Positions 975 through 50,933 of a stretch of 64,000 nt of DNA are shown here, one piece after another. The notes under the pieces were generated by a model. It ran no database searches. It saw only the letters and a program-made list of their open reading frames with translations, and was not told where the DNA came from. The stretch comes from Patescibacteria group bacterium. GTDB taxonomy: Bacteria > Patescibacteriota > UBA1384 > XYA2-FULL-43-10 > 1-14-0-10-43-13. The stretch lies in contig JBAYHC010000001.1 of assembly GCA_041666325.1 (NCBI GenBank), positions 201,708 through 265,707 on the forward strand, written 5' to 3'. Numbering within the stretch: position 1 is the first letter of the stretch; the number at the start of each line of letters is the position of its first letter. Made by a program: the position numbers and the translations under genes.

Positions 975-1751
975 GTGTACTACTATATTTTTGATATAAG
1001 AAAATGCAATAAGCGCTCTCAAGTTGAGGACATCAAAACTTATCTTGGGGGGCTGGGGATCTCAGGGGAGTTCACCTATCCAACAGCTGCTCAAGCACCA
1101 GAAGAGCTAGTTGACTTGGCTTTGGCTAAACGCTACTCAACCATCGTAGCTATCGGGGGAGATGATCTCGCGACAGCTATCGCCAACCGCCTACTCGGCA
1201 GAAAAGAAGCATTGGGTATAATTCCTCTTGGAGCATCGGAGTATCTCTCTGAGCTGATCGGCACCAGTAATTGGCGAGAAGCAGCAGAGGCACTGCGTTT
1301 TCGTAAAATTTCAGAAATCAGGATGGGTCAAACAGCTGCCGGAAATTCCTTCTTAACACACATAGATCTCGATATTGGTTACCCCATAGAAGTAACGCTC
1401 GAATTTAAGGATTTTCTAGTTCAAACCAAAGCCGAGAATCTGATAGTGGCAAATGTTTACCCTGGCGTTAAAAAGAGAGGCATCGACTATCTCGATGTCC
1501 TTATCAAGAGTGCAGAACCAAAGGATGGGCCAATGCTCTCTCGCCTCGCCTCAATCTTTGGAGCAAAGAAAAACAATAAAGACAAATTAATTTCATTGTT
1601 TAGGGCCAGATCACTTCGGATTTTTACCAAAACACCATTAGCACTGATAAGCAACGGCAAAACGATTGCCAAGACTCCGCAACTAGTAGAAAGCTCCGAT
1701 GAGCCTCTCCGACTGATAACAGCCCGAAAAGGGGCACATCCGTGGGAGTGA
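975..1751 (+). CDS. Diacylglycerol-kinase-family (DAGK_cat / YegS-like) lipid kinase homolog with a degenerate GGDG motif (GGDD)
   Basis: IVAIGGDDLATAIANRLL...LGIIPLGASEYLSELIG matches the IVAxGGDGT...LGIIPxGTGNDFAR signature in divergent form. The N-terminus is short, so the start is uncertain. Confidence 0.5.
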   Translation: MYYYIFDIRKCNKRSQVEDIKTYLGGLGISGEFTYPTAAQAPEELVDLALAKRYSTIVAIGGDDLATAIANRLLGRKEALGIIPLGASEYLSELIGTSNWREAAEALRFRKISEIRMGQTAAGNSFLTHIDLDIGYPIEVTLEFKDFLVQTKAENLIVANVYPGVKKRGIDYLDVLIKSAEPKDGPMLSRLASIFGAKKNNKDKLISLFRARSLRIFTKTPLALISNGKTIAKTPQLVESSDEPLRLITARKGAHPWE

Positions 1752-1819: not shown

Positions 1820-2176
1820 CTACTTGTTCTTTCTATAGCTAATAAATGCAGAGATCTGACTTGCTACTTGCTCAAGTTTGGTGCTTAGTTCAATGTACTG
1901 TGATTGAGAACAGTATCCTAATTCTTTGGCTAAAACTAGTAATGTATCCAACTCATTGCAAGACCCCAGTGAGATATAGAGAAATTGTATCAGCTCTTTA
2001 TTTCCATTCCTGCCATATCCTTCGGCTATGTTTACCGGAATAGAAACCACCGCTCTATTTATTTGAGAAGCCAAACCATATATCTCTGAATGAGGAAATT
2101 GTCTGGTAATTTTGTAGCACAAGAGAACAAGGCCAATGCCTTCTTGCCATATTTTTAGATCTTTGTATCCCCTCAT
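1820..2176 (-). CDS. Four-helix-bundle protein (TIGR02436, 23S rRNA intervening-sequence protein family)
   Basis: About 118 aa with KIWQEGIGLVLLCYKIT...IAEGYGR...LYISLGSCNELDTLL, characteristic of this family. Confidence 0.6.
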   Translation of the reverse strand: MRGYKDLKIWQEGIGLVLLCYKITRQFPHSEIYGLASQINRAVVSIPVNIAEGYGRNGNKELIQFLYISLGSCNELDTLLVLAKELGYCSQSQYIELSTKLEQVASQISAFISYRKNK

Positions 2177-2227: not shown

Positions 2228-3901
2228 CTATTTAAGCTGTAGTACCGCTCCCTCCCCCTCATGCTCATCGAGAGGTTTTTCTTTAAGAATAGGCAGCGAG
2301 AAGAAAAATTCCGTTCCCTTGCCCTCACCCTCACTCTCAAACCAAATCTTGCCTTTGTGTAGTTCGATTAGATTTTTGGAAATATACATACCAAGCCCAG
2401 TACCCTTGACTTGGTCCTTCAAAACATCAACCTGAGAGAATTTCTGAAAAATTCGATCGCGCTTCTCCTTGGGCACTCCGCAGCCGTTGTCCTTGACTGA
2501 CACGACAATATTGTCGCCTTCTTTCCAGGCCCGAACTTTAATTTTGCCACCCGGATCAGTGTATTTGATAGAGTTGCCCAGCATATTGATAACAACCTCG
2601 GTGATTCTGGTCTTGTCAAACCAGGTCTTGGGCAGGGCATCTTCGGACTTGTCATAAACCAATGTGTGCCGCATCTCCTTCACCTTAGACCCAACCTCCA
2701 TTACAGCCTGGTTGATGATATCCTCCATCTGCGACTCCTCGTAAATAAGATGAACTCTGTTCGACTCTATCCTGGAGACATTGAGCAGATCTCGCACAAG
2801 TGAGGCCAGTCTTTTGGACGAAGTATAGACACTGTCAAGATATTTCTTGGCTTGATCCGGAATCTTGCCGCCCATGCCCTCATCCAAAATCATAGAAAGA
2901 TAACCCTCGATAGCAGCTATTGGAGTATTGAGCTCGTGCGATGCCATCGACATAAAGTTGTCCTTGGCCTTGTCCAAATCCTGCAAATGTTTATTAGCCT
3001 CATCGAGCCTTTTAGCTAATTTTGAAATGTCTTCCTTCTGTTTTATCTCACGCTGGACGCTCCTAACTAGCTGATACCCACTGTAGCTTGCGGTAAACCA
3101 TATGAAAAAATTGATTGCTCCCTCAGTCATGCTCTCCGATATTACCATCCGAACCAGCAGAGCGAGAGATAACACGATAACAATCGCCTCCGTCGCAATC
3201 ACTTTAATGTCAAACAGGTGATGCTTCGTGATTGCATAAGCAGTAAACCCAAGCATGAAAACAACAGAGTAGTCCCCCAGCCAATAATAGTTATCGCCAG
3301 GTCTGAAAACCGGCCAAATCACGTTGAAAATTGTGTTAAAAAATGCCACTGCAATCACACCGTACGAAAATAATCTTATTTGCGATTTTTCGTTCAAGCT
3401 AGCCAACTTGTATGATTTGACTAAGCGCCATATGACTAACAATGCGGTTATCACCGCGTAAGCATAGAAGATTAGTTCATATTCACCCATGGTCCAAACT
3501 AATAGGCTATTAGACAAATTCATATCTGCAACAATAAGATTTGTTGCGGCAGATACAATAGCAAACGACACACCGACAGAAACAAAAAGCAGATCGACAG
3601 TTCTCCATCTTGCTTGGTTTTTCGGGAAATTAAGAATAAACGCATAAATTGAAACCAGGAATAAGGCAACGGAGGCAAAATTTAGCCTAGCTAACAACAG
3701 AGAAAACCGGGATAGGCTCGGGTAATATACCAAAAAACCGAGACTGGCCCAAAGCAAAACCGCCAATGACGTTAGAAAGAAATAACGATTTTGAGGCTGA
3801 CGCTTATTTGTGTGGTAAACAGCAAAGCCAAGCAACAATGAGGCTAAAGCAACAGCCGCAAGCACAAACTCCTGAATCAGTTTTATGTCAATTTTTTCCA
3901 T
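2228..3901 (-). CDS. Sensor histidine kinase with a multi-pass membrane sensor domain plus HisKA/HATPase_c
   Basis: About 7 N-terminal hydrophobic helices; H-box MSMASHELNTPIAAIEGY; N/G boxes NMLGNSIKYT, DNGCGVP, GTGLGMYISKNLIELHKG. The start was moved to the internal MEKIDIK to avoid overlap with the upstream gene. Confidence 0.8.
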   Translation of the reverse strand: MEKIDIKLIQEFVLAAVALASLLLGFAVYHTNKRQPQNRYFFLTSLAVLLWASLGFLVYYPSLSRFSLLLARLNFASVALFLVSIYAFILNFPKNQARWRTVDLLFVSVGVSFAIVSAATNLIVADMNLSNSLLVWTMGEYELIFYAYAVITALLVIWRLVKSYKLASLNEKSQIRLFSYGVIAVAFFNTIFNVIWPVFRPGDNYYWLGDYSVVFMLGFTAYAITKHHLFDIKVIATEAIVIVLSLALLVRMVISESMTEGAINFFIWFTASYSGYQLVRSVQREIKQKEDISKLAKRLDEANKHLQDLDKAKDNFMSMASHELNTPIAAIEGYLSMILDEGMGGKIPDQAKKYLDSVYTSSKRLASLVRDLLNVSRIESNRVHLIYEESQMEDIINQAVMEVGSKVKEMRHTLVYDKSEDALPKTWFDKTRITEVVINMLGNSIKYTDPGGKIKVRAWKEGDNIVVSVKDNGCGVPKEKRDRIFQKFSQVDVLKDQVKGTGLGMYISKNLIELHKGKIWFESEGEGKGTEFFFSLPILKEKPLDEHEGEGAVLQLK

Positions 3902-4721
3902 TGATTTGATATATAAAAAACACAAGCGCCCAAATGAAATATTCGAGATCAATTAACAATGAAGAATAGGACTTATTGGCTCTGGACCAAAATAATTCAC
4001 AGGAACTAGCTAATATAGGCACGAGTATTAACACAGACGCAAGCGGCATAAAGCGGAGCAACACTGCAACTATTATTATAAATGCGCCAAGTCCATTTAG
4101 CAATTGTAAAACGAGGAATAGTCTATCGCCTCCGAGTACAGTAGCGAAGGTCTTCAGCCCCTTTTCTTTATCCTCGTCCATATCTTTAAGATCATAATAT
4201 GAAGTATTCATCAGGTCGCGGATAAATACTAAAACCATAATGATGATTACAGCATAATTAAACGGAAGAGAATAATAAAAGACATAAAATGGAATGATTA
4301 AATTCCAACCAACCGCCACGTAGAAATCTTTGAAACCAAGTATATAGTGCGTTAGTCCTTTAAACAAAACTGTATACAGAAGACCCCAAACCATTATTAG
4401 GATTGCTATCGATAATCCAATCGAATTGCCATGAACGCCTACAAACCAGAGCGTTCCAACGGTGAAACAAAGAATAAACAGCGTGAAAATAATATGCTTG
4501 TGCAGAGTACTTTCATAAACATCTTTTGCCTCCCACCTTCTCGGCTCCTCGAAATAATTGAAAAGATAAACTGCTGTGGGAATCAGGAACATAATAAACA
4601 AAAAGTCCCACTCGAGGGGACCTGACAACAAGAATGACACAGCGTATATTTCCGCCATCGCGCCAAGGGCAGTGACCAGGGCAATCTTAATGTGTCTGAA
4701 TGTTTTATTTTCCTTCGTCAT
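3888..4721 (-). CDS. UbiA-superfamily-like polytopic membrane protein (paralog 1). Second Asp-rich motif YDLKDMDEDKEKGLKT is present; the first motif is degenerate
   Basis: 8-9 predicted TM helices and a YDxxDxxxDxxxGxKT motif; a clear paralog of the ORF at 6949-7797. Confidence 0.45.
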   Translation of the reverse strand: MTKENKTFRHIKIALVTALGAMAEIYAVSFLLSGPLEWDFLFIMFLIPTAVYLFNYFEEPRRWEAKDVYESTLHKHIIFTLFILCFTVGTLWFVGVHGNSIGLSIAILIMVWGLLYTVLFKGLTHYILGFKDFYVAVGWNLIIPFYVFYYSLPFNYAVIIIMVLVFIRDLMNTSYYDLKDMDEDKEKGLKTFATVLGGDRLFLVLQLLNGLGAFIIIVAVLLRFMPLASVLILVPILASSCELFWSRANKSYSSLLIDLEYFIWALVFFIYQINGKN

Positions 4722-4737
4722 CAGCTGTAAACCTTAA

Positions 4738-5010
4738 TCACTTGTCTCTCCCATGTTTTAGGTAGCCTATCCCAAGCAAAAATACTCCCGGAACGTTAAT
4801 CACCCCAACAACAATAATCGGCCATTCGGTTAATGCAAGACCATAATTCAGCCAAGCCAACTCATTAATAATTAATGCGATTACTAATGGCCCGCTAAAA
4901 TCTTCGGCGCTCTTTGTGCGCCATATTTTTATGACCTGCATGTAGAGACCAAATGTAATAATGATGCTCGCAACAAGAGTTATGATTCGACTTGTGTCAA
5001 GATAATTCAT
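4738..5010 (-). CDS. SemiSWEET / PQ-loop (MtN3) family small sugar transporter
   Basis: 90 aa with 3 TM helices; MQVIKIWRTKSAEDFS resembles the LPQVxRVxxTKSTxDIS PQ-loop motif of bacterial SemiSWEETs. Confidence 0.6.
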   Translation of the reverse strand: MNYLDTSRIITLVASIIITFGLYMQVIKIWRTKSAEDFSGPLVIALIINELAWLNYGLALTEWPIIVVGVINVPGVFLLGIGYLKHGRDK

Positions 5011-5143
5011 ATTGAGTTTAGCTTTATTGCCTTCGCCAGCATTCCTTATCGTGTTTTTATCATTCTAACCCCCAAAGCGCACATTTTGCAAGCGATTACG
5101 AATAAAGTAATTGCTTGTTTATGATGATATAATGGTCACAACC

Positions 5144-6952
5144 ATGGCCAAACTGCTCTCTCAAATTAAATCACCTAAGGACTTAAAAAAATTATCGCTA
5201 AGTCAACTTGATGATTTGGCTGTGGAAATACGTTCATTTCTCTTGCAAACACTCGCTCAAAATGGCGGCCACTTGGCCCCGAACCTAGGAACAGTTGAAC
5301 TAACCTTGGCATTGCACTATTTTTATAACTCGCCCAAAGACAAAATGATCTGGGATGTTGGTCACCAGGCTTACACCCACAAAATAATCACGGGCAGACT
5401 CAATGATTTCGCCACCCTGCGCAAGATGGGCGGGCTGAGCGGATATCTCAAGATTACAGAAAGCAAGCACGATTCCTTTGGCGCCGGACACGCCGGTACC
5501 TCGATTTCGGCCTCACTCGGTTTCGCCGAAGCCAGAGATCGTTTAAAAAAGAATCATCAGGTTGTTGCCATTATCGGAGACGGAAGTCTAAACTGCGGAC
5601 TAGCCTATGAGGGTCTAAACAACATTGGAAGCCTCAACTCAAATATCACCGTAATACTAAACGACAATAAGTGGTCTATCTCAAAGAACGTCGGTGGCAT
5701 GGCAAAATACCTGGAAAAACTCTCTGGTATTGATGTAGCAAAGAAGAAAAACGCGGATATCGAGTCGATCTTTGAGTCTCTTGGCTTCAAATACTTCGGT
5801 CCGATCAACGGCCACAACATTGAGGAACTAGTTAACGCATTTCAGAAAGCTAGTATCACACCAGGACCAAAGCTGATACACGTCATAACCAAAAAGGGCG
5901 CCGGCTACAGCCACTCAGAGAACATGCCCGACAAATATCATTCAGTGAACCCCTTCATTCTTGAGTCTGGTGAAAGCATAAAGCGAACAAACAGCCTCAC
6001 ATTCACTAACGCTTTTGCTGATGCGCTAATACGAATAGCAACGACAAACAAGAAAGTCATCGCAATTACAGCAGCCATGCCTGCCGGTACGGGCGTTGAT
6101 AAGTTCGCGGAGAAATTTCCTGATCATTTTTATGATACTGGAATCGCAGAAGAACACGCTGTCATATTCGCTGCTGCACTCGCCCTCGAAGGCTTCATCC
6201 CGGTAGTAGCAATTTATTCAACTTTTCTCCAGCGCGCCTACGATCAAATAATCCACGATGTCGCGTTGCAAAAAATCCCTGTCATCTTTGCTATCGATCG
6301 AGCAGGCATTGTCGGGGCTGATGGCCCCACACATCATGGCATCTTCGACCTGTCTTACCTGCGCCACATTCCAAATCTTGTCGTGCTGGCACCAAAAAAC
6401 GAGAACGAATTACAACACATGCTTTATTCTGCCACTATGTACAAAGAGGGTCCGATCGCAATTCGATATCCGCGCGGCAGCGGAGCAGGACAAGTCTTGA
6501 GCTCAGAGCTAAGCATGATAGCAATAGGTAAAGCAGAAAAAATGACCAACGGATCTGATGTTGCAATCCTTGCGATAGGCTCTATGGTTTACCCTTCACT
6601 GGAAGCGGCAGAAATGCTAAGAAGCGAAAACATCCACGCTACAGTCTATAATGCCCGCAGCGCAAAACCGATTGATCCGAAGATGATTCAGGAAGCGCTC
6701 AAAATTGGAACCATTATCACTGCAGAAGAAAACATCCTTGAGGGTGGATTTGGCTCGGCAGTCTTAGAGGAACTCGAGAAGTCGGGGCACCTCTCAAACA
6801 TATCGGTGCGCCGGCTGGGCATTGAGAAATTTATTGAGCACGGAGAGGTAGGCGAACTCAAGGAGAAATATGGCCTTACAAGCAATCGAATTTACCTAGA
6901 AGCCAGAGACCTAATCTCTTCAAGGAATCAAACATCCGTCTTTTCGGCCTAA
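5144..6952 (+). CDS. dxs: 1-deoxy-D-xylulose-5-phosphate synthase
   Basis: N-terminus MAKLLSQIKSPKDLKKLS, GHQAYTHKIITGR, the TPP motif IIGDGSL and full-length transketolase-like architecture. The start was chosen at the internal Met matching the canonical DXS N-terminus. Confidence 0.9.
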   Translation: MAKLLSQIKSPKDLKKLSLSQLDDLAVEIRSFLLQTLAQNGGHLAPNLGTVELTLALHYFYNSPKDKMIWDVGHQAYTHKIITGRLNDFATLRKMGGLSGYLKITESKHDSFGAGHAGTSISASLGFAEARDRLKKNHQVVAIIGDGSLNCGLAYEGLNNIGSLNSNITVILNDNKWSISKNVGGMAKYLEKLSGIDVAKKKNADIESIFESLGFKYFGPINGHNIEELVNAFQKASITPGPKLIHVITKKGAGYSHSENMPDKYHSVNPFILESGESIKRTNSLTFTNAFADALIRIATTNKKVIAITAAMPAGTGVDKFAEKFPDHFYDTGIAEEHAVIFAAALALEGFIPVVAIYSTFLQRAYDQIIHDVALQKIPVIFAIDRAGIVGADGPTHHGIFDLSYLRHIPNLVVLAPKNENELQHMLYSATMYKEGPIAIRYPRGSGAGQVLSSELSMIAIGKAEKMTNGSDVAILAIGSMVYPSLEAAEMLRSENIHATVYNARSAKPIDPKMIQEALKIGTIITAEENILEGGFGSAVLEELEKSGHLSNISVRRLGIEKFIEHGEVGELKEKYGLTSNRIYLEARDLISSRNQTSVFSA

Positions 6953-7797
6953 ACAAAGAGGTAGTGCGAGAAGACCAATATCGGAAACCATAACAAGTAC
7001 TCCCCATCACAGTAAACATAGGAAAATATGGTCAGGTCTCTCTCTCCTTTTGATTTCTCAACATAGTAGGAGAAATAGGGCACGATCAATAATATCATTA
7101 GAGAATAATACGGCAACTGATTTTCGTAGACTCCAAATATTATCGGCAGAGCAGAGAGTAAATTGATGGCATTAATGAAGGTATAAAATTTCTGTCGAGG
7201 CAAAATTACCGCAAAAGTTTTAAGTTTTTTTCGACCATCATCAACCACATCCTTCAAGTCATAGAAAACAGTTGCAACAAAAAGCCTTATATATATAAAA
7301 ATGATCAATGAGACTGCCGCGTAGTCGACCCGAACGTGGGCATGAACGTTGTAGGCAAAAAGCAATAGCAGGTAGACCGCCGGCACAAAAAAATCTTTGA
7401 AACCGGTAATTTTGCGGCTAAGTTGTTTGAAGTACACACCGTAAGCAAAGCCGAGTGCATACATAGTTAGCCACAAGCCGATCACTGCGATTTTCCCCTG
7501 ATACGCCAGTATGCCCAGCGAACCTAAGAAGTATCCAATGATCATCACCTGAGTCAGTATTTTGTGTTTCAAAAGATAGTCAGCCCTCCCTGGATTGGTA
7601 CAAATATCTGACTTTATCTCTTTGTATCTATCGAAAAGATAAATCGAATGAACACCGAAGTATGTAATCAGAAGATAAAGGCTGTCAGGGGCCCGATCGA
7701 GCATAAGAGAATAGCTGCCGACAATGCATGCTGCACCCAAAGACATGATGTGACCACCAAAAATAAACTCATCTTTAATTCTCTTAAAGATATTCAT
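6949..7797 (-). CDS. UbiA-superfamily-like polytopic membrane protein (paralog 2); motif YDLKDVVDDGRKKLKT
   Basis: Shares GFKDF(F/Y)V and (Y/F)IR...YDLKDxxDDxxKxLKTFA blocks with the 3888-4721 protein; 8-9 TM helices. Confidence 0.45.
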   Translation of the reverse strand: MNIFKRIKDEFIFGGHIMSLGAACIVGSYSLMLDRAPDSLYLLITYFGVHSIYLFDRYKEIKSDICTNPGRADYLLKHKILTQVMIIGYFLGSLGILAYQGKIAVIGLWLTMYALGFAYGVYFKQLSRKITGFKDFFVPAVYLLLLFAYNVHAHVRVDYAAVSLIIFIYIRLFVATVFYDLKDVVDDGRKKLKTFAVILPRQKFYTFINAINLLSALPIIFGVYENQLPYYSLMILLIVPYFSYYVEKSKGERDLTIFSYVYCDGEYLLWFPILVFSHYLFV

Positions 7798-8265
7798 CTT
7801 AGTCCTGTTCGATTAATTATTATCTGTGCACACTCAAAATAACCATCTTCACCTCATGAAATGATTAGTGCCGCAGAACCCTACAGAGATGTTGGAAACA
7901 CCTTACATCTCTACTAAAGTCAGAGGCACTAGGAAAAAATGACGACTTTTTAATGATAGCGTCCAGCATGATCATGATCAAGTGATCGTTATCAACATAC
8001 GGCATTTTCTGAGCAAGCGCTTGATGTTTTGTAATTATTGTTCAACAATCAGCCCCTGATTCGGGCTCTAACGACTCACTGTAACTTTGTCAGCATTGAC
8101 ATACATGAATTTTTATGTTACTATTTATACATATAGTTTTAGATTAATGTTTATGCAACACAGCATAAATGATAATATATAGGCATCAAATCTTTATTGA
8201 GCCCGTGTTAAATTGAACTGCATTTGATAAAGGCCATAATAACTAACCACTAATAGGACTTATCA

Positions 8266-9336
8266 ATGGACGCCAAAACACAACTACAAGAGTACAAGCA
8301 AAAATTAGATATTGAGCTCAATAAATACTTGACCGCAAAAGTTCAAGAGGCAGATAGAATATCTCCACTGACCAGAGAACTAATGGAGTACATTGCCGAC
8401 CTAACGCTCCGTGGCGGAAAGCGAATCAGGGCCGCACTCATGTACTATAGCTATGTTGCCCATGGCGGCAAGAACACTGATGAGGTGCTTTTGGCTTCGA
8501 TGTCGATGGAACTCTCAGAGACATACCTTCTTATCCACGACGACATTATGGATAATGACTCACTACGCCGTGGAGGTATGACGATCAATACGTCATATCG
8601 TCAAATCGGAGAGAACCTTTATCACGACAAGATCAATACACGCAATTTTGGTAATTCCATGGCCATGCTTGCAGGTAATGTTGCTTGTGCTCTCAGCAAC
8701 GAACTCATAGCGCGCTCAAATTTTGACAAAAAAGATATCGTCCGAGCACTAGATGAGCTTAACCGGGTCTATGTTGTCGAGCAGTACGGCCAAATGCTTG
8801 ACGTTCTTTCACAGTTAAGGGAAAACATTACAACCAAAGATGTACTATTGGTTCACCAATTAAAAACTGCCCCCTATACATTTGAGGGTCCACTCAGAAT
8901 CGGGGCCATTTTAGCCGGCGCCGACGAGAAATCACTGCAGAAATTAAGCGACTACGCCATTCCGCTAGGAATTGCGTTTCAAATTCAGGACGATATCCTC
9001 GGCATGTTCGGATCAGAGGAAAAATTAGGCAAACCGGTAATCTCAGATCTAAAGGAGGGCAAAAAAACCCTTCTTATTCTGAAAGCATTGGATAGGGCGA
9101 CAGCCAGGCAGAGAGAGATAATCGAGATCAATCTTGGCAACAAGAAGACTACGATGAATGGACTGAAGGATGTCAGAGAAGTGATCAATCAAACAAAATC
9201 TCTCGACTATTCAAAGGCAATGGCCAAGAAGCTAGTCGAGGAAGCCGTCTCAGCCATGAACTTACTCAAATTAAAAAAAGAAGGAAGTGTATTCCTTCAA
9301 AATATCGCAGATTATATGATTAACCGAGAATACTAG
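8266..9336 (+). CDS. Polyprenyl diphosphate synthase (GGPP/FPP synthase family, IdsA/IspA-like)
   Basis: First Asp-rich motif LIHDDIMDNDSLRRG and second Asp-rich motif FQIQDDILG of trans-isoprenyl diphosphate synthases. Confidence 0.85.
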   Translation: MDAKTQLQEYKQKLDIELNKYLTAKVQEADRISPLTRELMEYIADLTLRGGKRIRAALMYYSYVAHGGKNTDEVLLASMSMELSETYLLIHDDIMDNDSLRRGGMTINTSYRQIGENLYHDKINTRNFGNSMAMLAGNVACALSNELIARSNFDKKDIVRALDELNRVYVVEQYGQMLDVLSQLRENITTKDVLLVHQLKTAPYTFEGPLRIGAILAGADEKSLQKLSDYAIPLGIAFQIQDDILGMFGSEEKLGKPVISDLKEGKKTLLILKALDRATARQREIIEINLGNKKTTMNGLKDVREVINQTKSLDYSKAMAKKLVEEAVSAMNLLKLKKEGSVFLQNIADYMINREY

Positions 9337-9854
9337 TCCTCTTTTTGCTCTCTGAACTGTTTCAGTCTTGGCCAAGCATCCTTGAACCAATAAGTAAAAC
9401 TTTGAGGATTGTTCTCAATCTCTTTCTCTAGTTCATCTGTCGAGACCCATCTCCAGTCTTCGGCCTCTTCTGGATTGGGTTCAGGAGAATCATCGCAAGT
9501 ACCAACAAAAACGTGATCTATCTCATTCTCCGTTAGGTCTCCCAATTCAGCCCTATACGCAAAAACAAACGCTTCACTGAGTGGGCAATCAAAACCCATC
9601 TCTTCTTTTAGCCGGCGATGAGCAGCTAACTCAGTCTTCTCGCCTGGAGACGGATGACTGCAGCATGTGTTTGTCCACAAACCGCCAGAATGATATTTAT
9701 TTATTGCCCGCTGCTGAAGCATCAACTCGTTGGCAGAATTAAAAACAAAGATTGAAAAGGCTCGATGTTGCAATCCTTTTTTGTGAGCCGCCATCTTCTC
9801 CTCTTCTCCAATGGGGGCGTCATCCTCATTAACCAATATAACTTTGTTTTCCAT
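9333..9854 (-). CDS. idi: Isopentenyl-diphosphate delta-isomerase, type 1 (Nudix fold)
   Basis: HRAFSIFVFNSANELMLQQRAINKYHSGGLWTNTCCSHPSPGE...EEMGF matches the type-1 IDI core; the start is placed at MENKVIL. Confidence 0.8.
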   Translation of the reverse strand: MENKVILVNEDDAPIGEEEKMAAHKKGLQHRAFSIFVFNSANELMLQQRAINKYHSGGLWTNTCCSHPSPGEKTELAAHRRLKEEMGFDCPLSEAFVFAYRAELGDLTENEIDHVFVGTCDDSPEPNPEEAEDWRWVSTDELEKEIENNPQSFTYWFKDAWPRLKQFREQKED

Positions 9855-10065
9855 AGTGTATTCTCTGTTAAAAAATGACATATTCTAATACATAATGCAA
9901 CAACATGTTTTGCGCAATTCAATTTGCCGCCATCGGATCAATGACTAGGCCACTTCTGCAATGTTGGATACAATAGCGATGGCACCAATGGCTCAGAAAC
10001 ACTCCGATTGTAGATGCCGCAAAATGGTGGTAAAATTTATTAACCAACCAACCTAGAAAAGCCCT

Positions 10066-10869
10066 ATGTCTATGTCTAAATCCTCCAGCGCCTATCTTTA
10101 TATTTTCTATTATCATTTTTTGACGATTTTGGCGTATCCGTACGAGCTTCTGATTACCGTCATAGAGCCGGCGGCCGAAATTGGCTTTTTGGTTCTATTC
10201 TGGGGCATGGTTGCCAGGGGCTCCAGCCATCCAATAGACTTAATTAGCATGGTTGCTTATTTTATTATGGTACAATTTGTCTCAATCTGGTCGCTCAATC
10301 CTGGCGGACTCAATTTCTCAAACTATATTGGCTACAGGATAAAATCAGGCATACTTTCCCAAAGCTTAATACGCCCGATACGCACCTTGCCTGCCCTATT
10401 ATTCGAGCACAGAGGATACTTTTTTGTTGACATGATTTTCTCTGTCATACTGCTGGCTCTTGCGATTAAACTATTAGGTGGAATAGAGTTGAATCAGCTT
10501 GTGATGTTCATAGTTTTTTCAATTCTCTCGTGCATCATTACATTTTCTCTCTGTGTGTTGATAGGTTCACTCGCATTTATTACCAAAGAGATAAGCAGTA
10601 TTAGACATAGTGTTTCTCATCTGGTACGCATCTTGTCTGGCGCCATGGTTCCCCTCAATTTTTTTCCAGAAGGGATCCGCCACTGGCTGAGCATTACCCC
10701 CTTTCCCAGCATGGTATTCGTACCTATCAGCGTTTTGCAGAACAAGCTTCCGCCCACTGTCCTGCTTTTTAATTTCAAGGTGGCCCTATTTTGGTCATTT
10801 CTTCTCCTCGGGGCGGCACTATTAATCTGGCAACGCAATATGAAAAAATATGAAGCAAACGGTATCTAA
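10066..10869 (+). CDS. ABC-2 family transporter permease subunit
   Basis: About 6 TM helices, located directly upstream of a second permease and an ABC ATPase. Confidence 0.5.
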   Translation: MSMSKSSSAYLYIFYYHFLTILAYPYELLITVIEPAAEIGFLVLFWGMVARGSSHPIDLISMVAYFIMVQFVSIWSLNPGGLNFSNYIGYRIKSGILSQSLIRPIRTLPALLFEHRGYFFVDMIFSVILLALAIKLLGGIELNQLVMFIVFSILSCIITFSLCVLIGSLAFITKEISSIRHSVSHLVRILSGAMVPLNFFPEGIRHWLSITPFPSMVFVPISVLQNKLPPTVLLFNFKVALFWSFLLLGAALLIWQRNMKKYEANGI

Positions 10870-11665
10870 CTTTTTCAAAATTAGAATGAGAATAGTTGGC
10901 ATAAACATCGCCAATACTTTTAATTTAGAAACTTCTTATCCGGCTGAGAATTGGGCCAACGCTTTCTCAACACTGCTGTACACGGCAAGCTATGTTATTT
11001 TTCTAAATGTTATTTTTGGCAACGTTGAAACACTGGCTGGCTACAGCTACAACGATATGTTGTTTTTTTCTCTGTTGAGCCAAACTGCGTTCTACACTCT
11101 ATACACCTGGAGCTTCGACAACATGGACAATCTGGTAAACAGCATCCATCAGGGTGAGCTAGACCTATTGTTAACAAAACCACTTCCAACCCTCTTTTAC
11201 GCAACAACACGAACATTTTCATTGCTTCGGCTTGCCAGAGATGCATTTTTACCGATAGCCATGATCGCTCTCCTGATTAGCTGGTCTGACTTAAATTTGT
11301 CTACAGAGAGAGCTATCGCAGGGCTGATTATATTTATATGCGGACAATGGGTACTGCACGTTTTTCAGTTTCTGCTAATATTGCCCGCTTTCTGGAATGG
11401 ACAATCCCAGGCACTGCTCCGACTGTCATATACGCTAAGTGAGCCCAATGTCCCACTTGAGGGTCTGACAAAGTTCTGGCGATTTTTTCTACTGACCGCG
11501 CTTCCCGTCTGCCTGCCAGTGGCCGCCTCTGTTTCCGTCATCCTTGGGCGCAGTAATGCTGTTCCAATGGTCATATGGTCATTATTTTTGGCCGCAGTAG
11601 CAACCGTAGTTCGTTTTTTCGCTTGGCGCAGAGCACTTCTGGCTTATAACTCAGCCTCATCTTAG
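10850..11665 (+). CDS. ABC-2 family transporter permease subunit (second)
   Basis: Polytopic membrane protein in an operon with the flanking permease and ATPase. Confidence 0.5.
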   Translation: MKQTVSNFFKIRMRIVGINIANTFNLETSYPAENWANAFSTLLYTASYVIFLNVIFGNVETLAGYSYNDMLFFSLLSQTAFYTLYTWSFDNMDNLVNSIHQGELDLLLTKPLPTLFYATTRTFSLLRLARDAFLPIAMIALLISWSDLNLSTERAIAGLIIFICGQWVLHVFQFLLILPAFWNGQSQALLRLSYTLSEPNVPLEGLTKFWRFFLLTALPVCLPVAASVSVILGRSNAVPMVIWSLFLAAVATVVRFFAWRRALLAYNSASS

Positions 11666-11685
11666 TATTAAACAACAAGGTACCA

Positions 11686-12684
11686 ATGAATAACGTGATA
11701 GAGGTAAATAATCTGAAAAAAAGTTTCCGTGTCCGGCAACAGGGCGGAATGCTGAAAGCGATGTTTCGACCGGAGTACAAAACCGTCCATGCAGTCAAGG
11801 ATGTTAGTTTCAAGGTTGCCAAGGGCGAGGCGGTTGCTTTTTTGGGACCAAACGGCGCCGGCAAAACTACCACGATCAAGATGATGACCGGCCTTGTTCA
11901 TCCAAGCGAGGGTACGGTAAGTGTCTTGGACTCTGATCCGTTCCGCAGAAAACCTGAATTCCTACAAAGAATTGGCCTAGTCATGGGAAACAAAGTCGCA
12001 CTAAACTGGGATCTAACTGCCAAACAAAGCTTCAATCTAGTCAAGAATATCTACAACCTTGAATCAGGATTTACCAAGAAACGTATATCAGAGCTTGCCA
12101 AATTATTAGACGTGACAAATCTCCTGGATGTTCAGATACGAAATCTATCTCTTGGAGAGCGAATGAAAATGGAACTAATCGGATCAATTCTCCACAAACC
12201 AGAGATATTGTTTTTGGACGAGCCAACGATTGGTCTCGACATATTAACCAAAAAACGGATCCGACACTTTCTTAAAGATATTCAAAAGAATGAGAGCACT
12301 ACCCTTATCCTAACCAGCCACGACATTGACGACATTGAGGCTGTCTGTGATCGAGTGATTATCATCAATAAGGGAGAGAAGTGCTATGACGACAGTATCG
12401 ATTCTCTTGTAGAAAAATATCAACAAAACCGCTATCTGCGATTTGTTTTGGAGAATCCCCTTGGCAACGACCAGGTTTCCAAACTAAGAAACCTGGGTAC
12501 ACTGGAAAAGAATAGCGATAACGGAGAAACAAACCCTAGTGAAGCGATCTACCTGTTCAAGACAAGCATTACCAACATGGTTCCACTTATCACGCATGTC
12601 TTGACCTCAAATACTGTTCTCGACATGAAAATAGAGTCAGTACCGCTGGAGGACGTGATCGCTGACCTGTTCAGAGCAAGCTAA
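11686..12684 (+). CDS. ABC transporter ATP-binding protein
   Basis: Walker A GPNGAGKTT, signature LSLGERMKM, Walker B LFLDEPTIGLD and the H-loop TSHD. Confidence 0.85.
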   Translation: MNNVIEVNNLKKSFRVRQQGGMLKAMFRPEYKTVHAVKDVSFKVAKGEAVAFLGPNGAGKTTTIKMMTGLVHPSEGTVSVLDSDPFRRKPEFLQRIGLVMGNKVALNWDLTAKQSFNLVKNIYNLESGFTKKRISELAKLLDVTNLLDVQIRNLSLGERMKMELIGSILHKPEILFLDEPTIGLDILTKKRIRHFLKDIQKNESTTLILTSHDIDDIEAVCDRVIIINKGEKCYDDSIDSLVEKYQQNRYLRFVLENPLGNDQVSKLRNLGTLEKNSDNGETNPSEAIYLFKTSITNMVPLITHVLTSNTVLDMKIESVPLEDVIADLFRAS

Positions 12685-17120: not shown

Positions 17121-18908
17121 TTAATATCTAATCTGAATCTCACTTATCAATTTTTCAATAGCCATCGGTCCCTTGTCGCCCTCACCATAACGCCGAACAG
17201 CGACCTTGTTGTCACCGACTTCTTTGTCGCCAACAATTAGCATATAGGGAATCTTCTGTATCTCAGCGTCACGGATCTTGCGTCCGATCGACTCACTTCT
17301 TAAATCTATCTCAACCCTTACGCCTCGCACCTGTAAACTTTCGCCTATACTATTTGCATATTCCTGATGCCGGTCAGCAATCGGCAAGACAATGGCCTGG
17401 ACTGGGGCAAGCCACACCGGAAATGCTCCGGCGTAGTGCTCAATAAGTAAACCGATAAAGCGCTCAAATGAGCCAAACAACGCACGGTGGAGCATATATG
17501 GCTGTTCCTCTTCGCCTTTTTCATTAACAAAGGTCATGTTGAAACGCTCCGGCAAGTTGAAATCGAATTGCAGAGTCGACAACTGCCACTCGCGCCCAAG
17601 AACATCCCGGACCTTGAAATCAAGTTTTGGCCCGTAAAAAGCAGCCTCACCCAACTCCTCTTTGAAGGACAAGCTTTTTTCAGTGGCGACTTCGCGCAAA
17701 ACTTGCTCCGTGAACTCCCAGCCTTCATCGTTTCCGGCATACTTACTCTTATTGGCTGGATCACGAAGCGAGAGATAGACATTGACGGAATCCAAATCGA
17801 AGCCGAATGATTTGTAAATAAACAAAATAAAATCAACGACCCGCTTAAGCTCGCCTTTCACCTGATCTTTGCGGCAAACGATATGAGCATCGTCTTGAGT
17901 AAAGCCACGAACGCGCGTTAGCCCAGAAAGTTCGCCTGTCTTTTCAAATCGATAGACCGTGCCTATCTCAGCCCAACGAAAAGGAAATTCTCGATAAGAG
18001 TGGGGCGAATTCTTGTAAATCTGAACATGAAATGGACAGTTCATCGGCTTCAAAAGATACTCTTCAGATTTTTCCACCTTACGCTCAAGCTGACGGTCTT
18101 CCAGACTCTGACCGGCTTCCATTGGCGGATACATGCTTGAATTATAGAAGCCCCAATGACCTGATTTTTCCCACAAACGACGATTGCCAATATGAGGACT
18201 GCGAACAAGTTGGTACCCATTTTTCAGGTGCTCTTTGTACCAGAAATCCTCGATCACACGCCAAATAATAGCACCTCTTGGGTGCCACAAGACTAGCCCA
18301 AGGCCGACCTCTTCATCAATATGAAATAAGTCAAGCTCTCGTCCAAGTTTACGATGATCCCGTTTCTCCGCTTCCTCACGGTTTTTCAGATATTGCTCAA
18401 TACCTTCCCTTGATTCGAAGGCCAGGCCATAAATCCGGGTCATCATCGAGTTCTTCTCGCTCCCCTTCCAATATGCTCCGGCAATTTTGTCCAATTTCCA
18501 GCCAGCACCCTTGAGGTCCTTGGTCGATTCGACATGAGGACCAGCGCAAAGATCAACAAAATCGCCACTCTGATAAATCGAAACTTCTGTCTCGCCACTT
18601 GCTTCTAAATCTTTAATCAATTCAACCTTATATGGCTGGTTTTCAAACTGCTTACTCGCGGACCTGCTTACAAGCTTACTGGCCTTGAAGCTTGCGCCTG
18701 AATTAATAATCTCCCTCATCTTCTTCTCTAGCTTCGGTAAATCCTCAGCAGATAGCGCCATTGGCAATTCAAAATCATAATAAAAACCTGTATCGATGGC
18801 CGGACCGATCCCAAGTTTGACTTCGGGAAACATGTCCACAACTGCCATAGCCAGAACATGGCTTAATGAGTGACGCACTGTCTCAATTGGATATTTTTTT
18901 TGCTCCAT
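17121..18908 (-). CDS. thrS: Threonine--tRNA ligase (short form lacking the N-terminal TGS extension)
   Basis: Class II core with HRALFGSFERFIGLLIEHYAGAFPVWLAPVQ and a C-terminal anticodon-binding domain. Confidence 0.9.
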   Translation of the reverse strand: MEQKKYPIETVRHSLSHVLAMAVVDMFPEVKLGIGPAIDTGFYYDFELPMALSAEDLPKLEKKMREIINSGASFKASKLVSRSASKQFENQPYKVELIKDLEASGETEVSIYQSGDFVDLCAGPHVESTKDLKGAGWKLDKIAGAYWKGSEKNSMMTRIYGLAFESREGIEQYLKNREEAEKRDHRKLGRELDLFHIDEEVGLGLVLWHPRGAIIWRVIEDFWYKEHLKNGYQLVRSPHIGNRRLWEKSGHWGFYNSSMYPPMEAGQSLEDRQLERKVEKSEEYLLKPMNCPFHVQIYKNSPHSYREFPFRWAEIGTVYRFEKTGELSGLTRVRGFTQDDAHIVCRKDQVKGELKRVVDFILFIYKSFGFDLDSVNVYLSLRDPANKSKYAGNDEGWEFTEQVLREVATEKSLSFKEELGEAAFYGPKLDFKVRDVLGREWQLSTLQFDFNLPERFNMTFVNEKGEEEQPYMLHRALFGSFERFIGLLIEHYAGAFPVWLAPVQAIVLPIADRHQEYANSIGESLQVRGVRVEIDLRSESIGRKIRDAEIQKIPYMLIVGDKEVGDNKVAVRRYGEGDKGPMAIEKLISEIQIRY

Positions 18909-18921
18909 TCCAGTTTCCTTT

Positions 18922-18986
18922 TGTCATCCTGAACTTGATTCAGGATCCACTATCTTATAGATTCCGGATCAAGTCCGGAATGACAC
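18922..18986. repeat. Small palindromic element with terminal inverted repeats TGTCATCC...GGAATGACA, enclosing two hairpins; it lies in the thrS 5' leader
   Basis: The inverted repeats and two inner stem-loops (cctgaacttgattcagg; ccggatcaagtccgg) are seen in the sequence. A second copy lies at 20864-20972. Confidence 0.4.
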
Positions 18987-19257
18987 AGGGCATACAAAAA
19001 GACCCTATGGTACAGGAGTCTCTTGGAGACGGTTCCATCCTGCTTGGGTCTTAATTCACCTGTTCGCTCAGGCCTGCGTTGTGTCTCCAGGTTGGTGAAT
19101 CCTATCAACAACACAAATAATAATGTACTGATACTATACCAACTATCTGACTCAAGTGCAATATTTCGGTTGCAGCAATTAATTAGCATCTAATTAACTC
19201 TTGTAACCGGGCGCCCCGCGGATCGGGGCGCCACGTGATGTGACTTGTCGGCAGCCC

Positions 19258-20415
19258 TTAGTGGGTTGCCTCCTCCACCCGCACCTGCGGGCGTTCTGCT
19301 GGCCTCCAGGCCGGCTTGGTCTTCGACTTGACGGTCGTCATCCAGTCCCCATTGCTGTCCTGGGTGACGTAGATGACGGTACCGTCGACCTTGGCCGGGG
19401 CGATGGAGGCCTTCTTGGTCTTCTTGGCCCCAGGCACCGGTGCGCCAGTGATCCGACTGTCGCGGAGACGGTCCCGCGCGAACTCATCTGGCACCTCGCC
19501 AACCAACTTGTAGTCAAGAGCGTTGGCCGAGGCGCCTTGCCTCGTCTCCTTGGTAATGTAGACGATCACTCCGGCCCAGGCCGGGGTATCGAGACCGTAG
19601 CCACTCGCCTCACCGACCGACTTGACGTTCAGGTGTGTCCAGCCATAGTCGTCGGCCTTAATGCGATAGACCCGATGGTTGTCGACGTCGACGTAGCTGG
19701 GCCACTGTGATAGCGGCAGCCACGGCGACGCAAACCGCTGGTTGTGGGTGGTCAAGAGGTTGATGTCCACACCCTTCCCCACCACCACACCGAACTCGCT
19801 GAGGCCATTGAGCCTGACAGCCGCCTCCTCGAGGCAGCCGACTGGCTCGCGCTCCTGTCCCCAGGACGCCTCAGGCACGCCCTGGCTGCCAGCGGTCGTT
19901 TCGTTCGGCACCGCCCGGCGCAGAGTGGCCACGTTGTTGGTCTGGCCATCGCTCAGGGGCGCGCTCAACGAAAGCTCGATCTCGGTGCTGCCGTCAGCTT
20001 TCCTGCTCTGGCCGATGGCGCGCACCAGGTAGAGATTCCCCCCCATCTTGAGGCCGGCGTAGCGCCCCGCGAAGGGGAACCAACCCGGGCCATCGAACAG
20101 GTCGGCCAGGTCGGGATCGAGTTTGCTGGGGTCTACCACGGTCGTTACCACCTCGACACCACCCTCGCTCGGTTGCCTCTGCAGGTCAACGGCGAAGGTA
20201 GCGGTCAGGTGCTTGTCGCCGACCTGGTTGAAGATGATCAGGTCGCCCTTGACCTTGGGCGCTTCCGGCGAATTCGGCGCGGGCGGCTCAAGGTTGCCGG
20301 AAGCCTGCTGCGGGGTTGGTGCCTTCGGCGCCGTATCCCCAGTTGAACCCTTCTTGCAGCCGGCCGCCAGCGTGGCGGCGGCGATCAGCGGGACAACAAA
20401 CCAGGTGTAACGCAT
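19258..20415 (-). CDS. Lipoprotein of unknown function encoded on a compositionally foreign (about 65% GC) segment
   Basis: Signal peptide plus lipobox (VVPLIAAATLAAGC). The region 19.2-20.5 kb is far more GC-rich than its flanks, and a GC-only hairpin (ggcgccccgcggatcggggcgcc) follows the stop. The start was chosen at the second Met. Confidence 0.55.
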   Translation of the reverse strand: MRYTWFVVPLIAAATLAAGCKKGSTGDTAPKAPTPQQASGNLEPPAPNSPEAPKVKGDLIIFNQVGDKHLTATFAVDLQRQPSEGGVEVVTTVVDPSKLDPDLADLFDGPGWFPFAGRYAGLKMGGNLYLVRAIGQSRKADGSTEIELSLSAPLSDGQTNNVATLRRAVPNETTAGSQGVPEASWGQEREPVGCLEEAAVRLNGLSEFGVVVGKGVDINLLTTHNQRFASPWLPLSQWPSYVDVDNHRVYRIKADDYGWTHLNVKSVGEASGYGLDTPAWAGVIVYITKETRQGASANALDYKLVGEVPDEFARDRLRDSRITGAPVPGAKKTKKASIAPAKVDGTVIYVTQDSNGDWMTTVKSKTKPAWRPAERPQVRVEEATH

Positions 20416-20817
20416 CTCCGATCTCCTTCCCGAACTTCTCACGGTCTCGCCAAGGGGGCGGACCGATGCCTACCGATCAAGTTACTATCGGCCTGCAATA
20501 AGCACGAAGATCGCACTTACGAACAAGCCGATCGTAGTAATTGTCAAAGATCACGAAACCAACCCTCACCAAAAAACCGTATTAGTATATCATACTTTTT
20601 CACTTTTGTCAACATTTGTCACCGTGAACCCAGAAATTGGAGGCTAAAACTTAGCTAATTCCGTCATCCTGAACGAGTGGTAACGAAGTGAAGGATCTAG
20701 CGAAGCGAAATGAAAAAGGCTCAATACACACGGCTGCGCCTAGACTTTTCGCCTCCGGCTCAGAATGACTTAATAAATTGGATCAAATTTCTGAGTTCAG
20801 GGTTGTCAATGTGAAAA

Positions 20818-21005: not shown

Positions 21006-21059
21006 CAAACCAAAAAATAGCCTGCTTTGAAGCGGCAATAAAATCATGATTAGACCAAT

Positions 21060-40221: not shown

Positions 40222-40337
40222 ACATAGCTATTTCAAGACAATTCTATCACAGCTACATCTGGTTGTATAAAACAGCAGGAGATGATGACCTTCGGGACAA
40301 TTTGATTGGGTGGGAACGCCGAAATACATTCGTATTT

Positions 40338-50498: not shown

Positions 50499-50933
50499 TT
50501 ACGCATCCTTGGTCGTTGGCCGGTGTCGATCCAGGACCTCTGAAACTTTTTTGATCACATCAATCGGCAAAACGTCTGACTTGACAATGAACTCGTCAGC
50601 GCCAAGTTCTTTGGCTTTGGCGTACTTGTCAGCCTCAAGTAGAACCGTATAAATTATGACCGGAATATCCTTCGTCACATCACTCTGCTTTAGAACTTGC
50701 AGAACCTCAAAGCCATTCAGACCGGGCATCATTATATCAAGGATGATCAAATGCGGATGGTTTTCCTCGGCCATCCGTACTGCTTCCTTGCCATCATGAG
50801 CCACCTCAACGATTGCTCCTTCCTGCTTGAATCTGTCTGCGTACATCTCAAGAAGTGTTAGGTCATCGTCTGCAATCAGAATTACTTTTCCATCCAACAT
50901 AGGACCTCCTAAAATTTGCTTTGACAATAACAC
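50499..50933 (-). CDS. Stand-alone response-regulator receiver (CheY-like) protein
   Basis: LIADDD...ILDIMMPGLNG...K; the phospho-acceptor Asp and conserved Lys are in context. Confidence 0.8.
   Translation of the reverse strand: MLLSKQILGGPMLDGKVILIADDDLTLLEMYADRFKQEGAIVEVAHDGKEAVRMAEENHPHLIILDIMMPGLNGFEVLQVLKQSDVTKDIPVIIYTVLLEADKYAKAKELGADEFIVKSDVLPIDVIKKVSEVLDRHRPTTKDA

Follow-up and report, generated by a model that had tools for sequence, protein, structure and literature searches.

UbiA-like membrane proteins almost always coupled to a seven-transmembrane histidine kinase in Patescibacteria and methanogenic archaea

Introduction

What do two UbiA-like membrane proteins do in a member of the Patescibacteria, and where does the prenyl chain go that is made beside them? 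The question is raised by a stretch of 64,000 nucleotides from a Patescibacteria group bacterium (assembly GCA_041666325.1, contig JBAYHC010000001.1, positions 201,708 to 265,707), which is called the window in the following. It encodes the UbiA-like paralogs A (277 amino acids (aa), 3888..4721, minus strand) and B (282 aa, 6949..7797, minus strand) together with dxs for 1-deoxy-D-xylulose-5-phosphate synthase, the entry to the methylerythritol phosphate (MEP) pathway (5111..6952, plus strand), a gene for a short-chain trans-prenyl diphosphate synthase (8266..9336, plus strand) and idi for a type-1 isopentenyl-diphosphate isomerase (9333..9881, minus strand). A first-pass annotation, made from the sequence alone, had described these five genes as a cluster. 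Every open reading frame (ORF) was found in its place, and profile scans confirmed the identities (TIGR00204 with 726.6 bits, cutoff 466, for dxs; PF00348 with 190 bits for the synthase; NF002995 with 164.2 bits, cutoff 127, and TIGR02150 with 127.1 bits, cutoff 105.8, for idi). However, the left boundary had been drawn at 3888 and excludes the most important gene, which encodes a histidine kinase with a seven-transmembrane (7TM) sensor domain (2228-3901/3952, minus strand) and overlaps the 3' end of A.

Two relationships were missed in the first-pass annotation: the near-obligate coupling of the clade of A and B to a HisKA_7TM sensor kinase, and a terpene-synthase-like gene which takes the position of the UbiA-like gene in part of the loci. 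The coupling to the kinase is almost constant in about 150 loci, which come from methanogenic archaea and very small symbiotic bacteria. This suggests an isoprenoid-based sensing system that has not been described so far, and not ordinary quinone or archaeal-lipid synthesis. We read A and B as the enzymatic half of a conserved cassette, in which a UbiA-like enzyme would produce a membrane terpenoid that would be sensed or controlled by the 7TM kinase, and we consider the chances of this reading to be about even. The literature on UbiA or terpene synthases with histidine kinases, on HisKA_7TM and on isoprenoids in candidate-phyla bacteria yielded no description of such a cassette.

The two UbiA-like proteins and their clade

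A and B are paralogous, as annotated, with homology over the full length (28% identity, E 7e-26), and the motif YDLKDxxDD/ExxKxLKT by which they had been recognised is present in both (A YYDLKDMDEDKEKGLKT, B FYDLKDVVDDGRKKLKT). They are not the product of a recent duplication, since the best matches of A are kinase-linked members in other genomes and not B. A word-index protein search with A alone returned A only.

Their assignment to the UbiA superfamily was correct. The PF01040 scores exceed the Pfam gathering score (GA) by a narrow margin (36.7 bits for A and 36.8 bits for B, GA 34.2 bits); decisive are the fold and the family profile, which matches A with E 1e-74 and B with E 3e-97. An AlphaFold model of B built from eight homologues reached a predicted local distance difference test (pLDDT) of 88.6 and a predicted template modelling score (pTM) of 0.87. 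The top Foldseek matches of this model in the PDB are all UbiA-family structures, with identities of 10-17%, in line with an all-helical intramembrane fold of about nine helices. Among them AfUbiA (4tq3) has the highest TM-score (0.70), while the best E-values belong to digeranylgeranylglyceryl phosphate synthase (DGGGPS; 6m31, 3.8e-5, and 7bpu, 4.5e-5), for which the TM-score is only 0.54-0.56. UBIAD1-HMGCR (8djk) and the membrane phosphoribosyltransferase 8j8j are also among the matches. Against PDB sequences the family profile gave marginal matches only (DGGGPS 4e-4, UBIAD1 2e-3, chlorophyll synthase 2e-3).

Neither A nor B reaches a curated model for DGGGPS, MenA, UbiA or heme O synthase, and they are not ordinary MenA, UbiA or CyoE proteins. 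The top NCBIfam match is PRK13591 'prenyltransferase' with about 21 bits against a cutoff of 238. The MenA model NF004749 gave 12.8 bits for A and 19.7 bits for B (cutoff 277), and the homogentisate phytyltransferase model 16 bits (cutoff 226). No match at E <= 1 was obtained for A or B with the DGGGPS-named models NF009521, NF009522 and NF009512 or with the heme O synthase (CyoE/CtaB) models, and the 4-hydroxybenzoate prenyltransferase model did not match them in the NCBIfam scan. Ten relatives scored 16-45 bits with DGGGPS-type models, whose cutoffs are 278-353, and had no match to heme O synthase models at E <= 0.01.

Within the UbiA superfamily, A and B belong to a distinct clade which is uncharacterised so far. 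When 1.84 billion representative proteins were searched with a profile, 357 clusters of 50% identity were obtained at E<1e-30 and 909 at E<1e-10. The members are nearly all about 280 aa long and matched from end to end, and we therefore regard the clade as coherent and sizeable. It has no name of its own: the members with a named source, from Patescibacteria, Dojkabacteria, Methanobacterium and Methanocella, carry generic annotation only. The clade also occurs in Thermoplasmatales. In the tree, B groups with a protein from L001, a Saccharibacteria metagenome-assembled genome which shows wider synteny to the window.

Coupling to a sensor histidine kinase

The kinase encoded downstream of A consists of an N-terminal HisKA_7TM domain followed by HisKA and HATPase_c (PF16927 38.9 bits, GA 28.6; PF00512 64.4 bits; PF02518 102.9 bits). 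Its translation shows the H-box SHELNTP and the G-boxes. The ORF can be extended to a TTG at 3952, and its homologues (alignment A4) align from the ATG at 3901; the overlap with the 3' end of A is 65 nt from the TTG and 14 nt from the ATG. A single-sequence structure model of the 7TM domain was unusable (pLDDT 51.5, pTM 0.31). HisKA_7TM is mentioned in archaeal censuses only as a sensor domain of unknown ligand (PMC5847659).

The association with the enzyme was examined from both sides. In the forward direction, 63 genome loci were fetched with the family alignment, and all their ORFs were scored with profiles of the window proteins. A kinase is located within 400 bp of 50 of the 75 family ORFs. 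It lies directly downstream on the same strand in 32 of these 50 cases, usually with an overlap of 4 or about 40 nt and with a gap of 11 bp at most. In 11 cases, from archaea, it lies upstream on the same strand with gaps of about 120-150 bp, and the remaining seven pairs are divergent. Unbiased clustering of the neighbours recovered the kinase cluster in 56 of 70 loci. The archaeal loci L008 and L010, 'negative' by profile, do have adjacent kinase-type genes according to Pfam records, since the profile missed their HisKA_2-type core. The same records show the pairing in Methanobacterium and in the cultured strain Methanocella arvoryzae, where UniProt Q0W8D7 is accompanied by an overlapping kinase. 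The coupling is thus seen in both domains of life. It should be noted that these loci were all selected by sequence patterns and that common descent connects part of them.

Some loci contain further membrane proteins. Next to mevalonate-pathway genes, L010 (6083-9837, Methanocella arvoryzae AM114193) encodes, in this order, a PAS/HisKA_2 kinase, the UbiA-like protein and a membrane protein of PF04240 ('carotenoid biosynthesis'). We tried HisKA_7TM as a relative of this carotenoid CruF-like family and rejected it (hhalign probability 0.1%); PF04240 occurs in no other locus. A remote homology between the kinase 7TM domain and the UbiA family was rejected likewise (hhalign probability 0.5%). Six tandem stand-alone HisKA_7TM-like membrane proteins without kinase domains are encoded in L095 (807-6863), and stand-alone copies were also found in L013, L018, L039, L046 and L104.

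Replacement by terpene-synthase-like proteins

For the reverse direction, metagenome contigs were searched with the kinase 7TM domain alone (alignment A4). This gave 80 loci, 71 of which have at least 900 bp upstream of the kinase. A UbiA-like gene is located immediately upstream of the kinase in 48 of the 71. In 19 of the remaining 23 loci the same slot is occupied by a soluble, hydrophilic protein of about 330 aa. Its invariant LLDDxADK (DDxxD) is followed after about 140 residues by GNWxSTWERE (N-x3-S/T-x3-E), and the two make up the metal-binding signature of class-I terpene synthases. Three of these proteins were scanned against PF19086 (Terpene_syn_C_2) and gave 25.6 bits (GA 23.7), 19.5 bits and no match, respectively. 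The family has no PDB sequence match and no NCBIfam name. In two further loci, both GC-rich, the kinase is preceded by a canonical terpene synthase (PF19086, 48.7 and 34.6 bits). An enzyme predicted to be of the prenyl-diphosphate-ionising type thus precedes the kinase in 69 of the 71 loci, 48 times UbiA-like and 21 times class-I terpene-synthase-like.

In a tentative neighbour-joining tree of the 7TM domain, the kinases coupled to terpene-synthase-like genes form three or more groups that are interspersed among the UbiA-coupled kinases. L094 (3099-6656) is the only locus with both enzyme types, in the series UbiA-like, terpene-synthase-like and 7TM kinase. From the coupling to the kinase and from this replacement we conclude that the clade more likely belongs to a terpenoid-linked two-component system than to bulk lipid chemistry.

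These data also bear on the possibility that the adjacency is nothing but inherited synteny, and that the UbiA-like protein has a lineage-specific role unrelated to the kinase, for example the modification of a polyprenyl-phosphate carrier as by DPPR synthase. The membrane phosphoribosyltransferase 8j8j is indeed among the fold matches, prenyl synthase and idi are needed for undecaprenyl phosphate anyway, and many of the loci come from related Patescibacteria. However, the pairing is kept in two domains of life and in three orientations (kinase downstream, upstream or divergent), and it outlasts the replacement by a non-homologous enzyme type of the same predicted chemistry. We therefore give this explanation hardly any probability.

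Catalytic residues

Residues were tabulated for 70 family sequences and are numbered according to B. Motif I starts with N (41 sequences) or D (29) at position 56, which is thus N or D in 70/70. After three residues follows E (38), D (25) or G (5) at position 60, where an acidic residue is found in 63/70, and after three more D64 (65/70). Motif I is followed by (T/S)-N-x-E-R, with the N and the R in 65 sequences each. Y119 is present in 69/70, and K124 and K134 are invariant. Motif II is D180-x-K182-D183-x-x-S-D187 followed by T194; D180, K182, D183, D187 and T194 are invariant, and the Ser is found in 61/70. In the HMMER alignment motif II corresponds residue for residue to the DxxDxxxD of DGGGPS, UBIAD1 and chlorophyll synthase.

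The second Asp-rich motif had been reported for both paralogs, and the full motif II was found in A and B. The first had been called degenerate in both, which is true for A only. B carries D56-x3-E60-x3-D64, a conservative form of (N/D)xxx(E/D)xxxD, and with N68, R71, Y119, K124, K134, D180/K182/D183/D187 and T194 it shows the full family signature. A has motif II and the central Y/K residues intact; its motif I is reduced to N-x3-E, with Trp at the position of D64, and N68, R71 and the N-terminal E-F-x-Y-G-G-H are missing. The same reduction of motif I occurs in five metagenomic proteins (L074-L079) which are 29-34% identical to A and form an 'A-type' clade with it, so that it is not decay in one genome. 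All of them are encoded upstream of the kinases closest to the window kinase.

The A-type proteins are one argument for a different function, in which the UbiA-like protein, at least of the A-type, would be a pseudo-enzyme and co-sensor, a membrane accessory that binds farnesyl diphosphate (FPP), geranylgeranyl diphosphate (GGPP) or undecaprenyl diphosphate and passes its occupancy to the kinase by contact. Comparable pairs are BceAB-BceS, LiaF-LiaS, UhpC-UhpB and UBIAD1, which senses GGPP for HMG-CoA reductase. BceS-BceAB, LiaS-LiaF and UBIAD1-HMG-CoA reductase (8djk) share with the cassette that a polytopic, isoprenoid-lipid-binding protein is tied, genetically or physically, to a regulator of the same pathway. 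In the Bce and Lia systems, however, the accessory proteins are transporters or small membrane proteins and not UbiA enzymes, and the UBIAD1 regulation is eukaryotic and involves no kinase. Although motif I has lost its third Asp and the N-terminal motif is gone, the A-type clade is conserved and is always found beside a kinase. The overlapping or abutting genes of most bacterial loci would fit stoichiometric co-production, one clade has the cassette directly upstream of the dcw cell-wall cluster, and UBIAD1-HMGCR is among the fold matches. On the other hand, most kinase-linked members keep every metal-binding residue, and a soluble terpene-synthase-like protein in the same position is hard to square with a helix-to-helix contact in the membrane. 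The tailoring genes described below (reductase, methyltransferase) imply a product, and none of the 150 best family members is, to judge by its length, fused to a kinase. A co-sensor function is unlikely in our view, but it is the main alternative to the favoured reading.

Neighbouring genes and the prenyl donor

The neighbourhoods were compared over 148 non-duplicate loci. The kinase was found in 134/148 and the UbiA-like gene in 117/148, followed by prenyl synthase or idi (44/148), a receiver-only regulator (30/148), YjbQ (22/148), a geranylgeranyl-reductase (GGR)-family flavoprotein (20/148), the terpene-synthase-like gene (19/148), an Asx-tRNA synthetase (17/148) and a methyltransferase (8/148). 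The recurrent enzyme neighbours besides the cassette pair are those of isoprenoid supply or tailoring. The stand-alone receiver protein flanks the cassette in many bacterial loci, with the order response regulator, synthase, UbiA-like gene and kinase in L003, L022, L028, L030 and L034. The GGR-family flavoprotein is encoded directly upstream of the UbiA-like gene in eight genome-derived loci; two of three scanned gave 140-156 bits with TIGR02032 (cutoff 158.8) and 250-272 bits with PRK11445 (cutoff 303). In L013, L014 and L017 the UbiA-like gene is separated from the kinase gene by one for an S-adenosylmethionine (SAM) methyltransferase similar to CMAS, UbiE and GPP methyltransferases.

Two other neighbours are mentioned for completeness. 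A YjbQ-family gene (TIGR00149, 93 bits) adjoins the prenyl synthase/idi part, e.g. in L001 (9259-9699) and L014 (5469-5915). In one patescibacterial clade (L007 8001-16855, L016, L029) the series of UbiA-like gene, kinase and synthase runs into the dcw cluster (mraZ, mraW, PBP, murE). A general link of the cassette to this cell-wall cluster was considered and dismissed, because it holds in the clade of L007, L016 and L029 only.

The prenyl chain had been described as C20 or longer. In the synthase of the window an uninterrupted DDIMD is preceded by Tyr at -5 and Leu at -4, a GGPP/FPP-synthase-like pattern, and its best NCBIfam matches are GGPP synthase-type models, all under cutoff. Tyr or Phe is found at -5 in 35 of about 41 full-length cassette synthases, which is the short-chain pattern. 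According to the chain-length rules for trans-prenyl synthases (type-I GGPP-synthase pattern) such residues lead to products of C20 or shorter, and the aromatic residue at -5 therefore indicates a product of this size. The C20 part of the earlier description is thus retained, the longer chains are not, and the donor is better stated as C15-C20. Such a donor would fit the GGPP-synthase-type similarities as well as the GGR-family neighbour.

The neighbours are also informative for one of the destinations that the first-pass annotation had put forward, namely DGGGPS-like ether-lipid chemistry. In this model the proteins would be O-prenyltransferases making archaeal-type or mixed ether lipids for a bacterium unable to make fatty acids. 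DGGGPS (6m31, 7bpu) is the nearest structural relative, by the best E-values in both the structure and the PDB profile search. It shares with the clade a UbiA fold of about 280 aa, the motif II spacing D-x-x-D-x-x-x-D and probably a C20 donor. DGGGPS-type NCBIfam models are among the weak matches of the relatives, and a GGPP-type synthase and a GGR-family gene are found as neighbours. DGGGPS-like UbiA homologues have been noted in bacteria, including one Parcubacteria genome in which GGGP synthase (GGGPS) and DGGGPS homologues occur together; it was added that UbiA homologues may have other functions (PMC7852524). However, the identity to DGGGPS is within 10-17%, A and B do not match the curated models at all and their relatives stay far below the cutoffs, and the TM-score is lower than that to AfUbiA. 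GGGP synthase, glycerol-1-phosphate (G1P) dehydrogenase and menaquinone or ubiquinone synthesis genes were not found in the about 45 ORFs scanned of the 64-kb window, which include housekeeping genes. GGGP synthase and G1P dehydrogenase are also absent from the recurrent neighbours in the 148 loci, where the genomic partner of the clade is the sensor kinase and not lipid genes. Methanogens have this clade as well, and from general archaeal lipid synthesis a DGGGPS of their own is expected in them, so that the clade would stand there alongside normal lipid synthesis. A bulk-lipid enzyme would hardly be expected to be tightly coupled to a regulator of low abundance, nor to be replaced by a terpene-synthase-like protein. 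An ether-lipid function is thus not borne out by these data and is improbable.

A quinone-like product was considered as well. Here a scavenged aromatic head group would be prenylated to a quinone-, tocopherol- or phenazine-like lipid, the redox state of which would be read by the kinase as ArcB and RegB read quinones. MenA, UbiA and COQ2 belong to the same superfamily and use the same metal-binding logic, and A and B do match the models of MenA and homogentisate phytyltransferase weakly. Similarities to UbiE, MenG and UbiG are also seen in the neighbouring methyltransferases, and GGR-family enzymes saturate quinone side chains (MenJ match). Against this stand scores of 13-20 bits where the cutoffs are 226-277 (at least 277 for MenA/UbiA/COQ2), the absence of quinone and aromatic-precursor genes from the window ORFs scanned and from the neighbourhoods, and the finding that no glycerol-phosphate or aromatic-precursor enzyme is recurrent over the 148 loci. 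Moreover, to our knowledge Patescibacteria, Methanobacteriales and Methanocellales have no respiratory quinones. An aromatic prenyltransferase is very improbable.

Organisation of the cassette in the window

In this genome the cassette is split. One overlapping unit on the minus strand is made up of the kinase gene, A and, directly upstream of A, a gene for a small SemiSWEET-type transporter (4738..5010, minus strand; PF03083 34.8 bits, NF037968 46.4 bits). B is placed among dxs, the prenyl synthase gene and idi. The SemiSWEET gene is outside the conserved part of the cassette, as no homologue was found in the other loci scored with the window-protein profiles. In the same set of genome loci, dxs adjoins a family member only in the window and in L052. 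Between 1700 and 10100 there are 18 promoter-like matches against 18.1 expected from shuffled sequence, and 12 terminator-like matches against 7.0 +/- 2.6, which is weakly above. The transcription units are therefore based on the gene overlaps alone.

A receiver-only response regulator of 144 aa is encoded at 50499..50933 (minus strand; PF00072 83.2 bits, without output domain), 46 kb from the cassette, where it adjoins the divergent mraW (51033-51989). The receiver-only regulators that flank the cassette in 30 of the 148 loci are of this size. It is the sole receiver protein in the window, and we infer that it is the only plausible partner of the window's single kinase.

Comparison with known systems

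The nearest mechanistic precedent are UbiA-type terpene synthases (Fma-TC, EriG, Tps1A/Tps2A), which ionise FPP or GGPP without a second substrate. They are established in fungi, with few bacterial examples, contain motif I Nxxx(G/A)xxxD and the three-Asp motif II DxxDxxxD, and are clustered with tailoring enzymes, e.g. methyltransferases (PMC9835599). The cassette resembles them in that its UbiA slot can hold a class-I terpene-synthase-like gene. As far as a comparison of motifs goes, the clade has (N/D)xxx(E/D)xxxD, with G in the middle position in 5/70 and not the G/A of these enzymes, and (F/L)DxKDxxSD, with three Asp present and F/L in place of the preceding Gln. The known examples are not known to be paired with a kinase.

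The nearest analogue at the level of the whole system is ComQ-ComX-ComP-ComA of Bacillus, in which ComQ, with the soluble polyprenyl-synthase fold, modifies the ribosomal peptide ComX, and a polytopic kinase detects the isoprenylated signal. In both cases a prenyl enzyme is encoded beside a polytopic membrane histidine kinase with a response regulator nearby. In contrast to ComQXPA the enzyme of the cassette is of UbiA- or terpene-synthase-type, and the regulator has no output domain. There is also no room for a peptide gene, because the enzyme and kinase genes overlap or are 11 bp or less apart in the 32 cases with the kinase directly downstream.

Proposed function

In the function that we favour, C5 units from dxs and idi would be joined by the adjacent synthase to a prenyl diphosphate of C15-C20, for which GGPP is the most likely candidate. 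The next step would fall to B, and probably also to A, as the UbiA-like enzyme, which would act within the membrane and depend on Mg2+. It would bind the diphosphate via motif I (N/D-x3-E/D-x3-D) and motif II (D-x-K-D-x3-D) and then release it. The allylic cation might be quenched intramolecularly or by water, as in terpene synthases, or by some acceptor, as in transferases. Either mode would yield a hydrophobic terpenoid that is kept in the membrane. We favour the terpene-synthase-like reaction because the class-I synthases that can take the place of the enzyme do without a second substrate, and because there is no conserved acceptor pathway. The product, or the flux through the enzyme, would be sensed by the 7TM domain of the kinase whose gene directly follows A, and the kinase would signal via the receiver-only response regulator. 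A GGR-family flavoprotein or a SAM methyltransferase may tailor substrate or product in some lineages.

Several points weigh against this proposal. The catalytic function of the UbiA-like proteins is predicted from sequence and gene context. Adjacency argues for a functional link of enzyme and kinase, and the kinase could regulate the enzyme, or merely share an operon with it, rather than sense its product. The motifs cannot separate a cyclase from a transferase, because DGGGPS has DxxDxxxD too. The kinase-adjacent A, without D64, N68, R71 and the N-terminal motif, could be catalytically altered, and the fully conserved copy B is not adjacent to the kinase in this window. In the clade closest to B (L001), too, a kinase is absent from the surrounding 9 kb or so. 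Prenyl synthase and idi might serve no other purpose than the housekeeping supply of undecaprenyl phosphate. The loci of the reverse search were retrieved with one sequence pattern and are thus related by descent, and the terpene-synthase-like family is only borderline to Pfam and lacks a PDB sequence match. Finally, all trees are neighbour-joining trees without support values.

A more far-reaching version would be a self-contained terpenoid signal-and-receptor system. A UbiA-type or, interchangeably, class-I terpene synthase would make a lipophilic C15-C20 terpenoid, the dedicated 7TM kinase would detect it and a CheY-like regulator would relay the signal. Such a system, common to episymbiotic Patescibacteria and methanogens, would be the prokaryotic counterpart of a terpenoid hormone with its receptor, and communication between cells or between symbiont and host might be its purpose. 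We regard this version as tentative and rather doubtful.

Other features of the window

Beyond the 3' end of the kinase gene the window encodes a DAGK_cat-type lipid kinase (975-1751, plus strand) and a 23S-rRNA-intervening-sequence protein (1820-2176, minus strand). On the other side, 185 bp past idi, an ABC-2 type transporter starts (10066-12684, plus strand; two PF06182 permeases and an ATPase). It has no homologue in any related locus and is probably outside the cassette.

The region 18000-22000 is GC-rich (0.51-0.53) and contains no rRNA according to Rfam. The ORF at 19258-20442 (minus strand, 394 aa) has no Pfam match, and there are competing ORFs on the opposite strand. The Rfam scan of the window revealed tRNAs, a tmRNA and a LOOT RNA. 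A low-GC island (0.38-0.41 compared to about 0.44 elsewhere) extends over 40000-49800 and encodes an OLD-family nuclease (40588-42582) and a DUF4238 protein (42600-43442). The LOOT RNA (RF03000, 46662-46784, minus strand, 71.5 bits against 46.4) is also located inside the island, and the gene for a large serine recombinase (47856-49487) abuts the tmRNA gene (49411-49802, minus strand, Rfam). The island resembles a mobile or defence element that has been integrated at the site of the tmRNA.

Implications

Studies of the lipid divide are affected, as a UbiA homologue in a candidate-phyla bacterium should not be taken for DGGGPS, and hence for a sign of archaeal-type lipids, unless this clade has been checked for. 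Patescibacteria have tiny genomes and very few regulatory systems. The cassette is kept across many of their classes and is common to them and methanogens, and it is therefore likely important to them. If the favoured function is true, A and B represent a new functional clade of the UbiA superfamily. The widespread HisKA_7TM domain would then have its first functional clue, namely that it reads isoprenoid chemistry, and terpenoids might serve as dedicated signalling ligands in bacteria and archaea.

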